The notes under the pieces were generated by a model, which did not search any database, was not told the origin of the DNA, and saw only the letters and a program-made list of their open reading frames with translations. Both the position numbers and the translations under genes were made by a program. Shown here piece by piece: positions 13,492 to 56,602 of a stretch of 64,000 nt of DNA. The stretch's first letter is position 1. Each line of letters begins with the position of its first letter. The stretch is from Escherichia coli (GTDB lineage Bacteria; Pseudomonadota; Gammaproteobacteria; Enterobacterales; Enterobacteriaceae), in NCBI RefSeq assembly GCF_003018235.1, contig NZ_CP027437.1; one strand, written 5' to 3'.

Positions 13492-14553
13492 ATGGATACT
13501 TTAAAATATGAGAAATTCTCTGATTTTGATCACAATGACCCATTTTTTGACTCTTTAAAAAAAGATTATAAAGAGTTTCCTCTTTGGTTAGAAAAAAAAG
13601 CCAGAGAAGGAGAATCAGCTTATGTGCTCTATGATGACAAGCATAAAATCGAAGGTTTTATGTATCTAAAAGAAAATGATGATGCAAATGACATTAATCC
13701 AGCGCTCCCACCAGGACGTCATCTAAAGATAGGAACATTCAAATTTGAATCTAAAGGCACCCTTCGCGGACAACGATTTCTAAAAAAAGCGTTTGACCAT
13801 GCATTTTCATCAAAATCTGATGATATTTATGTTACTGTTTTCGACAAACACGTCCATCTAATAAAACTTTTCCAAACGTACGGATTTTACATTCATGGTG
13901 AAAAAGAAACACATAACGGGAAAGAGTTTGTATATGCGAGGTCTTTGCATGAGCCTTATGGTGATATTTTATTAGATTACCCTCGAATAATGACATCAAG
14001 GGCCAACAAATATTTACTGGCGATTTATCCCGAATATCACACTAGACTATTCCCTGATTCAAAACTTGTAAATGAATCACCAGATATTGTCAAAGATATA
14101 TCCCATGCTAACAGCATTCATAAAATTTACATATGTGGAATGCGTTCTGTGATGGGAATGAAAAGAGGAGATATCATTGTCATCTATAGAACCGGAGACA
14201 AAAAAGGGCCAGCTCGCTATCGTTCTGTAGCCAGTACATTATGTGTAGTTGAGAGCGTAAAAAATATTTCTGAATTTTTAAGCGAAGATAGTTTTGTAGA
14301 CTATTGTATTCGTTTTAGCGTATTTTCTGAAGATGAACTCAGAAAAATCTATAAAGAACGTCGATACCCTTTCATTATAAGATTCACATACAATCTGTCT
14401 TTGCCAAAGAGACCCAATCGTGCTATTTTAATAGATCATGTGGGGCTAAATGGTTCGCGTGCATTCCGATGGAGTCACTTTAAACTCACAAATGAGCAGT
14501 TCTTAAAGATCATCGAGTTAGGCAAGATAAATGAAAGTTTTATTATCCATTAA
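13492..14553 (+). CDS. hypothetical protein, first gene of rexAB-position operon
   Basis: 353 aa from ATG with GGAG 6 nt upstream (track ORF starts 13480); AT-rich; no family recognised; C-terminal half has PUA-like-looking motifs (GDIIVIY). Confidence 0.4.
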   Translation: MDTLKYEKFSDFDHNDPFFDSLKKDYKEFPLWLEKKAREGESAYVLYDDKHKIEGFMYLKENDDANDINPALPPGRHLKIGTFKFESKGTLRGQRFLKKAFDHAFSSKSDDIYVTVFDKHVHLIKLFQTYGFYIHGEKETHNGKEFVYARSLHEPYGDILLDYPRIMTSRANKYLLAIYPEYHTRLFPDSKLVNESPDIVKDISHANSIHKIYICGMRSVMGMKRGDIIVIYRTGDKKGPARYRSVASTLCVVESVKNISEFLSEDSFVDYCIRFSVFSEDELRKIYKERRYPFIIRFTYNLSLPKRPNRAILIDHVGLNGSRAFRWSHFKLTNEQFLKIIELGKINESFIIH

Positions 14554-20090: not shown

Positions 20091-20167
20091 TGGCGCGCCC
20101 TGCAGGATTCGAACCTGCGGCCCACGACTTAGAAGGTCGTTGCTCTATCCAACTGAGCTAAGGGCGC
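20091..20167 (-). tRNA. argU: tRNA-Arg (anticodon UCU), argU; prophage attachment site
   Basis: Reverse complement reads GCGCCCTTAGCTCAGTTGGATAGAGCAACGACCTTCTAAGTCGTGGGCCGCAGGTTCGAATCCTGCAGGGCGCGCCA, a cloverleaf with UCU anticodon. Confidence 0.9.
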
Positions 20168-49044: not shown

Positions 49045-50826
49045 TTATTCATAGTGCATGAAGCAGGTTTCAGTCGGTGCATCCACTGCGTTATCGGCGA
49101 TATCTTCAAATTCCATGACATTATCCAGTTCGCTGCCCATCGAAATATTGGTCACACGCTCGAGAATAACTTCCACGACTACCGGTACCCGATATTGCGC
49201 CATTAAGGCTTTCGCCTGTTCAAAGGCTGGTGCTATATCTTCCGGTTTGAAAACGCGAATCGCTTTACAACCTAAACCTTCCGCTACTTTTACGTGGTCG
49301 ACGCCGTAACCGTTCACTTCGCTGGAGTTAATATTTTCGAACGCGAGCTGTACGCAGTAATCCATATCAAACGCGCGCTGCGACTGGCGAATCAGACCCA
49401 GATAGGCGTTATTGACCAGTACATGGATGTACGGAATGTTGAACTGTGCGCCAACGGCTAATTCTTCAATCAGGAACTGGAAGTCGAAGTCACCGGAAAT
49501 CGCCACCACATTGCGCTCTGGATCAGCGGCACACACGCCCAGCGCCGCCGGAATGGTCCAGCCCAACGGGCCTGCCTGCCCACAGTTGATCCAGTGGCGG
49601 TCTTTAAAGACATGCAGCATTTGTGCCGCAGCGATTTGTGACAGACCAATGGTGGTGACATAACAAACATCGCGACCAAAGGCTTTGTTCATCTCTTCAT
49701 ACACGCGCTGCGGTTTCACCGGCACGTTGTCGAAGTGGGTTTTGCGCAGCAAAGTGCGTTTGCGCTGCTGGCAGTCGGCGACCCATTCTTTACGACACGG
49801 CAGACGACCCGCTTTTTGCATCTCCTGCGCCACTTCAACCAGCAGTGTCAGCGCCGCTTTAGCATCAGAGACAATGCCGAGATCCGGACACAGCACGCGG
49901 CCAATTTGCGTCGGCTCAATATCGATATGAACGATTTTGCGCCCTTCGGTGTATTTCTCTACCGAACCGGTATGACGGTTAGCAAAACGGTTACCGATAC
50001 CAAACACCATGTCGGACGCCAGCAACGTTGCGTTACCGTAACGATGCGCGGTTTGCAGACCCACCATCCCGGCCATCAGTTCATGATCGTCCGGGATACA
50101 GCCCCAGCCCATCAGCGTTGGGATCACCGGAACGCTGGTAAGTTCAGCAAACTGTTGTAACAGTGCAGCTGCGTCAGCATTAATTACCCCGCCCCCGGCA
50201 ACAATCACCGGACGTTCGGCCTGGATTAACATTTCTACCGCTTTTTCGATCTGCATACGGCTGGCAGCAGGTTTGTAGACCGGCAGCGGTTCGTACATGT
50301 CAGGATCAAACTCGATTTCCGCAACCTGAACGTCGAACGGTAAATCCACCAGTACCGGCCCCGGACGACCAGAACGCATCAGGTGAAATGCCTGTTGCAG
50401 CACGCGAGGCACCAGCGCCGCTTCACGAACTGTAACCGCCATTTTGCTGACCGGTTTAGCAATTGCTTCAATATCAACGGCCTGGAAATCTTCTTTATGC
50501 AGACGGGCGCGCGGAGCCTGGCCGGTAATACACAGAATAGGAATGGAATCAGCAGAAGCGGAATAGAGCGCGGTGATCATGTCCGTGCCTGCAGGACCGG
50601 AAGTCCCCAGACATACGCCGATATTCCCTGCCGTTGCGCGGGTATAACCTTCCGCCATGTGCGAAGCACCTTCCACATGACGCGCCAGAATGTGACGAAT
50701 ACCGCCGTGCTTACGCATCGCTGAGTAGAACGGATTGATTGCAGCTCCCGGAACGCCGAAGGCGGTGGTGATACCTTCTTTCTCCAGCACATACATTGCC
50801 GCGTCAACGGCTCTCATTTTTGCCAT
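49045..50826 (-). CDS. gcl: glyoxylate carboligase Gcl
   Basis: 593 aa ThDP enzyme from [21 protein letters not shown] (track ORF extends upstream). Confidence 0.95.
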
Positions 50827-50847
50827 TTTATTCCTACCTCTATTAAT

Positions 50848-50864
50848 TGGAAAAATTTTCCAAC
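50848..50864. promoter_or_regulatory. AllR operator in gcl promoter
   Basis: Perfect palindrome TTGGAAAAATTTTCCAA about 25 nt upstream of gcl start. Confidence 0.6.
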
Positions 50865-50878
50865 TTTCAAATTTTGTC

Positions 50879-50905
50879 AAAAAAACCCGCTCCGCAGAGC
50901 GGGAT
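50879..50905 (-). terminator. rho-independent terminator after allR
   Basis: Minus strand hairpin CCCGCTCTGCGGAGCGGG followed by TTTTTTT. Confidence 0.6.
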
Positions 50906-50915
50906 GCGACAGACA

Positions 50916-51731
50916 CTATGGATGTGCTTTCAGTCCCAACGCCGTGCTGATATCGCGGGCGGTGTCTCTGACCAGCTCACCCTGACTGACAAAACGATCT
51001 TCTGTCAGTCTTGATGAAGGCCCGGAGATGGAGATAGCGGCAACAACACTACCTACATCATCGTAAATTGCTGAAGCTATACAATTCAGGCCTACAACAT
51101 GCTCTTCTTTATCTACGGTATAGCCCAGTTCACGCGCTTGTTCCAGGTCCTTCAGCAAGGTGGGCATATCCACAAGCGTCGTTGGCGTAAACTGCTGCAA
51201 ACCGGTTTGCAGAATGATGCTCATCAACTCCTCTTCCGCCAGCGGATAAAGCAGCGCCTTGCCCGCACCAGAAGCATGCAGCGGCAGACGACTGCCCAGC
51301 GGCGCACACATCCTGACCATCGATTTACACTCTAACTGACCAATTAATACTGCTTCATTGCCGTTACGAATCGCGACATTGACCGTTTCGCCGGAAAGTA
51401 ACATCAGGCGGCGCATAAACGGCCCGGCTACGGAGAGGACATCGCGGTTATGGATGTACGCCGCACCGACGTTAAAGACACCTAATCCTATATGCCACCA
51501 GCCTAACTGACTGTCCTGATAGACAAAATCCGCTGCCTGTAAAACCTTCAGCAAGCGAAAGGTCGTGGAGAGCGGCAAATCCAGATTGAGAGAAATATCG
51601 CTAACCGATGAACTTCCCCCACTTTTTTCCAGATATTGCAGAATCGCAATTCCCCGCTCTAACGCCTGTGCGCCCTTCTGTGCCACAGGCTCCGCCTGTC
51701 CTGGCCTGCCGCGCCGTCTAACTTCCGTCAT
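50916..51731 (-). CDS. allR: allantoin regulon repressor AllR (IclR family)
   Basis: 271 aa IclR-family regulator. Confidence 0.9.
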
Positions 51732-51808
51732 ACCTACGTTAACTCCGACCTACAAGTGAGCATAAACAATGAACAATTAGTTTATCTTATGCAAGTCGGT
51801 TGCAGGCG

Positions 51809-52291
51809 TCACGCAAAACAGAGTTCCTGTTCAGGAATACTTTCAACATCACAGTTGTCACTGCCGCCGCGATCGATGGTCAGAAAATCGGTGACGCGCT
51901 GCCAGGCGAAAAGTGGGTGATGCCAGACGTTACGATGGTAATTCACCCCCTGTTCACCGTTGGTGATAAACGCCCGCAGCGTTGACAGGTCTGGTTTGTC
52001 GTCACCTAACGCCACGACCACCACAAACACTTCACCTTTCATCGGGATAAAGGCCTGAGTGCCCAGCGGATGACGTTCGAGTTCGTGAATGGTCAGCGGC
52101 AGATTCGCCGGTTGCGCGCGGTTAATGCTGATGAGCGTACGGTCTTGCTCAAGAATCTCAACCAGCGCCAAATCGTGGTAACGCTCTACCAGACCATTGT
52201 TAATATGGAAAAAATCCCGTTGCTGCGTTTCGATTACATCGCCATAAGCACTAAAGGCTTCCTGACTTAACGGTAATACCTGAAGTTTCAT
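51809..52291 (-). CDS. allA: ureidoglycolate lyase AllA
   Basis: 160 aa cupin. Confidence 0.9.
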
Positions 52292-52397
52292 CTTTTTGTC
52301 CTTGTAACATAATTCCGTTCAACCACCGCCGACCGGTCAGCTTGGTTTCAATAACAGGCAATCTAAAACCTTAAGAGAACAACATCAACACAAAAGT

Positions 52398-52414
52398 TGG
52401 AATATTTTTCCAAA
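52398..52414. promoter_or_regulatory. AllR operator in allA-allS intergenic region
   Basis: Inverted repeat TTGGAATATTTTTCCAA. Confidence 0.55.
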
Positions 52415-52520
52415 ACTAGATTTAGTCCACAAATTGAACAGGGTTATCATGTAAAAATACTGATAAATCAGAGGATAAGAAAATCACGCAACTTGCGGAT
52501 TTAAAAGGGGATACCTGAAG

Positions 52521-53447
52521 ATGTTCGATCCAGAAACCTTGCGGACTTTCATTGCGGTTGCTGAAACAGGAAGTTTTTCAAAAGCGGCAGAACGATTATG
52601 TAAAACCACGGCGACAATCAGTTATCGCATTAAACTTCTGGAAGAGAATACCGGAGTAGCGCTGTTTTTCCGCACGACTCGCAGCGTGACATTGACAGCG
52701 GCTGGCGAGCATCTACTTTCCCAGGCCAGAGACTGGCTGAGCTGGCTGGAAAGTATGCCCAGCGAGCTGCAACAGGTGAATGATGGCGTGGAACGCCAGG
52801 TGAATATTGTCATCAACAACCTGCTCTACAACCCCCAGGCCGTCGCCCAGTTGCTGGCGTGGCTGAATGAACGTTACCCCTTTACCCAGTTTCACATCTC
52901 CCGACAAATCTATATGGGCGTCTGGGATTCGCTATTATACGAAGGTTTTTCACTGGCTATCGGCGTCACGGGAACCGAGGCGCTGGCAAATACCTTTAGT
53001 CTTGATCCCTTAGGATCGGTGCAATGGCGCTTTGTCATGGCGGCGGATCATCCGCTGGCGAACGTTGAAGAGCCGCTAACAGAAGCGCAGTTGCGGCGCT
53101 TTCCGGCGGTCAATATTGAAGACAGCGCCCGCACACTAACCAAACGCGTCGCCTGGCGATTGCCGGGGCAAAAAGAGATTATTGTTCCCGATATGGAAAC
53201 GAAAATCGCCGCCCATCTGGCGGGCGTTGGCATTGGTTTTTTGCCAAAATCACTTTGCCAGTCAATGATCGATAATCAACAACTGGTCAGCCGGGTAATC
53301 CCAACGATGCGCCCTCCTTCGCCATTGAGTCTGGCATGGCGCAAATTTGGCAGCGGCAAAGCGGTAGAAGATATTGTGACCTTGTTTACCCAGCGCAGGC
53401 CAGAAATCAGCGGATTTTTAGAAATTTTCGGCAACCCACGCAGTTAA
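52521..53447 (+). CDS. allS: LysR-type activator AllS
   Basis: 308 aa LysR family regulator. Confidence 0.9.
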
Positions 53448-54610: not shown

Positions 54611-54677
54611 TGGGCGGTATTCTGAAACGGCGATTGTCGTGAGAACAGAATGGTTGCACCAGAATACAGATATAAAA

Positions 54678-54710
54678 AAACCGACATGACAGTCGGTTTT
54701 TTTATTTTTT
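54678..54710 (+). terminator. selU terminator
   Basis: AAAAAAACCGACATGACAGTCGG followed by TTTTTTTATTTTTT. Confidence 0.55.
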
Positions 54711-55021
54711 CCGCCCAAGACTTGGTGGTTCCGGGCAGAAATGAAACAGTCCTCATCTAGCAAGTGAATTATAAGTCAGGATGCCTACATATTCAAACAG
54801 CTATGTTGGCGATACAATCCCGACGCTAGTAGTGATACTGCCTCAAGGGATTACCGCAGTGCGGAAAAGTACTTTTAAGTCCTGGTCAGGATACAGGTGG
54901 TGCTGATTCTGGTGCTCTAATTTGGAGAGAGGCAGTCCTCATCTAGCACATGAAGAAAATCATAGTTACAGGCAACGTAAGGGTAAGCTGTGATTGTCTT
55001 TCTCCCTTAAGGGAGCAACGG

Positions 55022-55105
55022 ATGAAAACTTTTCTCGATAAAGTTCTCATCGTTCTTAAGGCGCTAATCGCGCTGCTGGAACTGATTCGTCAGTTTATTG
55101 AATAA
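55022..55105 (+). CDS. DinQ/TisB-like small hydrophobic peptide (candidate type I toxin), 27 aa
   Basis: MKTFLDKVLIVLKALIALLELIRQFIE; single amphipathic TM helix; start codon preceded by hairpin CTCCCTTAAGGGAG; resembles recalled DinQ (ALIALLELIR core). Confidence 0.35.
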   Translation: MKTFLDKVLIVLKALIALLELIRQFIE

Positions 55106-55203
55106 CTGAGGAAACGTAGCTAAGGCCGAAGGTTTACCACCTTCGGCCTTTAAAAAAACCGACATGACAGTTGGTTTCATATTTATTGCCAAAATGCATA
55201 CTG

Positions 55204-55240
55204 TTCATGCCAGATGCGGCGTAAACGCCTTATCCGGCCT
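55204..55240. repeat. REP element
   Basis: GATGCGGCGTAAACGCCTTATCCGGCCTAC palindromic unit. Confidence 0.55.
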
Positions 55241-55277
55241 ACACAATCTTGCAAAATCAATATATTGCACGCTCTTC

Positions 55278-56571
<1,294 letters not shown>

Positions 56572-56602
56572 CGTAGCGCATCAGGCAATCTAACACCTGT
56601 CA

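Follow-up and report, generated by a model that had tools for sequence, protein, structure and literature searches.

Predicted AllR operators at gcl and allS-allA in an Escherichia coli chromosome segment occupy the K-12 positions and are kept from Escherichia to Providencia

The closest described counterparts of the sites considered here are the AllR operators of E. coli K-12 (Rintoul 2002 and Hasegawa 2008, as relayed in PMC12535856, PMC8222616, and PMC13300388), which have the same genes, the same positions, and the same 8+1+8 palindrome. According to the account in PMC12535856, the gcl promoter and the allS-allA control region are both bound by AllR, for which glyoxylate serves as inducer and allantoin as corepressor. 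In that account AllS activates allD and allF, and allF is described as having no AllR site of its own. The AllR motif given in Table 1 of PMC8222616, where it is credited to Rintoul 2002, is KTTGGAAWAWTWTTCCAAC. The description of AllR in PMC12059191, which draws on ChIP-Seq, Library-ChIP, and BLI, is that of a highly specific factor with one or few strong sites in vivo.

Two further operator types of the same repressor family are relevant. The IclR box of the aceBAK and iclR promoters (TGGAAATNATTTCCA) shares the 7-1-7 A/T-rich palindrome with TGGAA/TTCCA outer arms, and IclR is a paralogous IclR-family repressor that also responds to glyoxylate (PMC5934670, PMC8222616). However, the IclR box serves another regulator and another regulon, the glyoxylate bypass, and its inner arms read AAAT/ATTT, whereas those of the sites described below read AAAA/TTTT. 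The TtgV-type operators, which consist of tandem palindromes bound by tetramers (PMC8222616), belong to the same family and are likewise palindromic, with repression by promoter overlap. Unlike these, neither of our sites was found to have a conserved second palindrome 18-22 nt away.

The stretch of DNA analyzed here, referred to as the window, is 64 kb of E. coli chromosome that is reverse-complemented relative to K-12 MG1655. Of 5,426 complete E. coli genomes, 5,401 contain a match to at least 80% of the 1.9-kb stretch around the two sites, with the genes annotated as gcl, allR, allA, and allS. The features needed for what follows are listed by position.

49045-50826, minus strand: gcl (glyoxylate carboligase), the first gene of the AllR-repressed gcl operon, identified from genome matches and annotation.
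50847-50863: predicted AllR operator of the gcl operon promoter, an 8+1+8 palindrome that reads TTGGAAAAATTTTCCAA on the plus strand.
50875-50880, minus strand: candidate gcl -35 element TTGACA, 11 nt upstream of the operator, proposed from the sequence.
50879-50903, minus strand: intrinsic terminator of allR and of the AllZ sRNA (stem 50886-50903, T-tract to 50879), which is the upstream boundary of the gcl promoter.
50916-51731, minus strand: allR, an IclR-family repressor (Pfam HTH_IclR and IclR_C).
51809-52291, minus strand: allA (ureidoglycolate lyase), AllR-repressed.
52360-52388, minus strand: candidate allA promoter TTGATG-17-TAGATT, 8 nt after the operator and below the scan threshold.
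52397-52413: predicted AllR operator of the divergent allS-allA control region, TTGGAATATTTTTCCAA on the plus strand.
52521-53447, plus strand: allS, a LysR-type activator of allD and allF, described in PMC12535856 as AllR-repressed via the shared operator.

The window AllR is 100% identical to K-12 AllR, and it matches the AllR effector domain structure (PDB 1tf1) with an E value of 2e-110. The true start of gcl is the ATG at 50826; the upstream GTG of the mechanically called open reading frame is not the start. BLAST mapping to an annotated genome placed the remaining genes of the ALL cluster, complete and in the usual order (hyi, glxR, allW, allB, ybbY, glxK, allE, allC, allD, fdrA, ylbE, ylbF, ybcF). 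The first-pass annotation had stated that the architecture of the allantoin regulon is conserved here, and this was borne out by the identities and positions of gcl, allR, allA, and allS and by the order of the whole cluster.

Several features of the wider window were noted along the way. A lambdoid prophage contributes positions 1-20090, which hold its integrase-proximal early region (integrase, Bet, cI, O, and P); 61-70% of this region aligns with the Escherichia phages PhiR47_2 and PhiR34_1 at 96-98% identity. It adjoins a tRNA-Arg(tct) gene (20091-20167, minus strand), like DLP12 at argU in K-12, and strain 4621 carries envY, ybcH, and nfrA in its place. Identity between the window and strain 4621 is 99.9% over the 1.9 kb around the sites and 98.5% over a 34.5-kb collinear block. 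Downstream of selU (mnmH), about 2 kb of the window (54612-56597) replaces the ∼6-kb ylbG/YbbD/RHS-core region of strain 4621; this 2-kb stretch of the window contains an IS110-family transposase reading frame (55387-56367, minus strand; Pfam DEDD_Tnp_IS110 and Transposase_20).

Both palindromes named in the first-pass annotation are present in the gcl and allS-allA control regions, at 50847-50863 and 52397-52413 on the plus strand. In K-12 they correspond to 533879-533895 and 532329-532345, respectively. The coordinates in the first-pass annotation, 50848 and 52414, were each off by one base. The span between those coordinates is not a single feature; it consists of two 17-bp sites, separated by 1.55 kb that includes allR and allA. 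The description of the palindromes as the expected AllR sites agrees with their fit to the published 19-mer KTTGGAAWAWTWTTCCAAC, which is matched with one mismatch at gcl (50846-50864) and with none at allS-allA (52396-52414, minus strand). The one gcl mismatch is a flank base at which K-12 mismatches too.

The gcl site occupies the middle 17 bp of a gap of about 52 bp between the T-tract of the allR terminator and the gcl ATG, which lies 20 nt downstream of the end of the site. On the plus strand of the window, which is the antisense strand of gcl, the site is composed of TTGGAAAA-A-TTTTCCAA; in gcl orientation it is TTGGAAAA-T-TTTTCCAA, that is, TTGGAAAATTTTTCCAA. The K-12 gcl site read in gcl orientation is TTGGAAAAATTTTCCAA, so the window differs from K-12 at the central base (T versus A). 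Both 8-bp arms are untouched by this change, a transversion at the dyad-axis base (window position 50855) that is permitted by the published consensus (W). The string of the first-pass annotation had matched K-12 at gcl because it was taken from the opposite strand, which illustrates that string identity with a published palindromic site may mask a real difference if the window is inverted. A second SNP lies two bases past the operator, where in gene orientation the window has T and K-12 has A (window 50845).

The second site, which reads TTGGAAAAATATTCCAA in allA orientation, is central in the 229-bp allS-allA divergent region, with its center at 52405; the allA ATG is 114 nt away on one side and the allS ATG 116 nt away on the other. 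It is identical to the K-12 sequence and to the K-12 AllR recognition site as quoted in PMC13300388, with one flank SNP nearby. Comparison with the characterized sites, proposed in the first-pass annotation as a check, succeeds fully at allS-allA, whereas at gcl it exposes the dyad-center T in place of the K-12 A. The terminator and all other intergenic positions agree with K-12; the differences are that base, position 50845, and the flank SNP mentioned above. The AllR operators of this window are thus already known and ordinary, and they are in the expected K-12 place.

Searches across the window indicate how distinctive the two sites are. With up to three mismatches, the shuffled expectation for KTTGGAAWAWTWTTCCAAC is 0.30. 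An operator search at the same tolerance returned four strand-matches with 0.45 expected, and none of 100 window shuffles reached four. The pattern TTGGAAWWWWWTTCCAA with up to two mismatches occurs at only two places in the 64 kb (0.24 expected). When the whole window was scored against TTGGAAAANTTTTCCAA, the two sites reached 16/16 and 15/16, followed by a single 13/16 match and then by 11/16. Degenerate-pattern searches of the 64-kb window returned no AllR site beyond the two, a result that agrees with the few-strong-sites profile of PMC12059191. The third-best match (13859-13875, TAATAAAACTTTTCCAA) lies in the prophage and is probably a chance occurrence; it has one perfect half-site, and the other half lacks the GG.

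Conservation was assessed by a gene-blind search for exact matches to TTGGAAAANTTTTCCAA in bacterial genomes, one for each species, in which at least 120 loci matched. The window Gcl, AllR, AllA, and AllS proteins were then compared by tblastn with 120 loci among the matches listed, five of which encode the cluster: Citrobacter werkmanii, Citrobacter sp. FP75, Citrobacter sp. R56, Serratia marcescens, and a Providencia species. These five species are a sample and not a census. The order of gcl, allR, allA, and allS is the same in all five, and each has the palindrome in the allR-gcl spacer, 14-22 nt ahead of the gcl ATG. Each also has a second copy or near-copy in the allS-allA spacer. In FP75 and in Providencia this copy is exact; the other two Citrobacter loci have TTGGAAAAATATTCCAA and Serratia has GTGGAAAAATTTTCCAA. 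Among the matches listed, therefore, the palindrome co-occurs with allR in every species that bears the cluster. In the other 115 of these 120 loci, the exact palindrome stands in unrelated contexts and is mostly attributable to chance in AT-rich DNA.

An ungapped comparison anchored on the operators was carried out for the six species, E. coli included. At gcl, 16 of 17 operator columns are invariant, the dyad center being the sole variable one, as compared to 13 of 80 flank columns (10/40 on one side and 3/40 on the other). At allS-allA the corresponding numbers are 14 of 17 operator columns and 7 of 80 flank columns (6/40 and 1/40). The invariant arms are paralleled in the protein, where the region of the AllR recognition helix is invariant among orthologues of 66-68% overall identity. 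Separately, a TGTG motif at about 52427-52430 (plus strand), 14-17 nt from the second site on the allS side, is invariant in the six species amid diverged DNA; it could belong to the allS promoter or be bound by another factor.

The geometry of the gcl region constrains where its promoter can lie. With only about 52 bp between the terminator and the ATG and the operator in the middle of that gap, any gcl promoter there would have to overlap the operator. Each of the six species has a -35-like hexamer 10-11 nt upstream of the gcl operator: TTGACA in E. coli, TTGACC in Serratia, TTAGAC in Providencia, and either TTCACA or TTGGAT in the Citrobacter loci. With this spacing the -10 element would fall within the A/T-rich center of the operator and the start site at its downstream edge; the -10 so implied is a weak match. 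A -10 element downstream of the operator is ruled out in Providencia, where the Shine-Dalgarno sequence starts 3 nt past the operator. A scan of the gcl region with the sigma-70 consensus gave one weak candidate, TTTCCA-17-TAAAAT, with 9 of 12 matches and its start inside the operator. No convincing promoter was obtained at the threshold of the sigma-70 scan, and the candidate elements were placed by their position across species; the candidate allA promoter is conserved in three Citrobacter loci. We infer the exact register of operator and promoter at both sites from this geometry.

The DNA immediately upstream of the gcl promoter also encodes an sRNA. The 3′ end of allR together with the terminator constitutes AllZ (window 50879-51113, minus strand; K-12 b4831, 533629-533863), which was predicted from RIL-seq and verified by northern blotting and may have its own promoter inside allR (PMC8175672). 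The 3′ end of AllZ is 15 nt from the gcl operator, and the terminator T-tract consequently forms part of the candidate gcl -35. Some weak AllR-like matches (10-11/16) also lie upstream of the gcl operator (window 50864-50882, minus strand), with their centers 17-19 nt away, and are confined to E. coli and Citrobacter. We considered these as an auxiliary tandem site for a tetramer and rejected the idea; they overlap the T-tract and the candidate -35, and they are absent in Serratia, in Providencia, and at allS-allA.

On the sequence evidence, we are highly confident that the two palindromes are the AllR operators of the E. coli allantoin/glyoxylate regulon. A competing reading is that they are primarily IclR operators, or are shared with IclR in a form of cross-talk. 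The two repressors are close paralogues (AllR matches the IclR effector domain 1td5 with an E value of 1.2e-44), and their consensus operators share both the 7-1-7 layout and the outer arms (PMC8222616 Table 1). However, the IclR box is matched with two and three mismatches at the window sites, and these fall at the inner-arm positions that separate the two motifs, whereas the AllR consensus is fitted with one and none. At that stringency the IclR box yields five matches in comparison with 4.04 expected by chance. The co-occurrence of the sites with allR in every species found among the matches listed also speaks against IclR as their owner, and we judge its involvement to be very improbable.

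Two other explanations would deprive the palindromes of a role as protein operators. That they are functionless A/T-rich palindromes is suggested by the AT-rich pattern itself and by the 115 of 120 loci in unrelated contexts noted above. Such an origin would have to account for a match count that no window shuffle attained, for two copies placed in exactly the two known control regions, and for positions kept in five other species whose flanks have diverged, and we consider it hardly credible. RNA hairpins, acting as leaders or attenuators in the gcl, allA, or allS transcripts, were weighed as well. A short A/U-rich hairpin could form at each palindrome; in contexts of about 50 nt, the minimum free energies are -6.1 to -7.1 kcal/mol. 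The folding z-scores are only -1.08, -0.65, and -1.51, however, and 17-50 of 200 shuffles fold equally well or better. Since the arms are invariant, there are no compensatory changes to back the pairing. Moreover, about 105 nt separate the allS-allA copy from the start codon on either side, it is probably untranscribed in its place between the divergent promoters, and the sequence matches a protein operator consensus exactly. We consider an RNA function hardly credible as well.

Under the AllR operator reading, the helix-turn-helix domains of AllR would recognize TTGGAAAA and TTTTCCAA, the symmetric arms of each 17-bp palindrome. At gcl, where the operator would overlap the core promoter, probably in the -10/start-site region, bound AllR would be expected to exclude RNA polymerase. 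At allS-allA, a single operator midway between divergent promoters would allow one AllR oligomer to obstruct both. Repression of allS by AllR would also extend to the oxamate branch, since AllS activates allD and allF, and AllR may thus control that branch indirectly. Glyoxylate would free AllR from the DNA, and allantoin is reported in the literature to strengthen repression.

The gcl operator alleles were also compared within E. coli. Both alleles are common: among the 5,426 complete E. coli genomes, 1,396 carry the exact 89-bp allR-gcl spacer of the window and 1,983 carry that of K-12. In a sample of divergent E. coli alleles the operator arms are invariant except in WEM25, and the sampled operator variation is otherwise confined to the dyad axis. 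The WEM25 allele (NZ_CP061530.1 1044619-1044767), the only one sampled with an arm change, reads TTGGAAAGTTTTTCCAA, and gcl is annotated as frameshifted in that strain; the two changes may indicate decay of the pathway. We also considered whether lineages might differ in AllR affinity or in the basal strength of the gcl promoter through the polymorphisms at 50855 and 50845, the second of which falls where a -10 element or start site may lie. We regard this as improbable. If it were true, repression of glyoxylate/allantoin catabolism would be tighter or looser in strains with the window allele than in K-12; a large quantitative effect on AllR affinity or on the gcl promoter is unlikely, and the question is of minor interest.

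Beyond correct annotation the importance of these sites is small, as they are textbook elements of a characterized regulon. What the comparison contributes is a phylogenetic footprint obtained blind to genes, in which the AllR operator and its placement are kept from Escherichia to Providencia.
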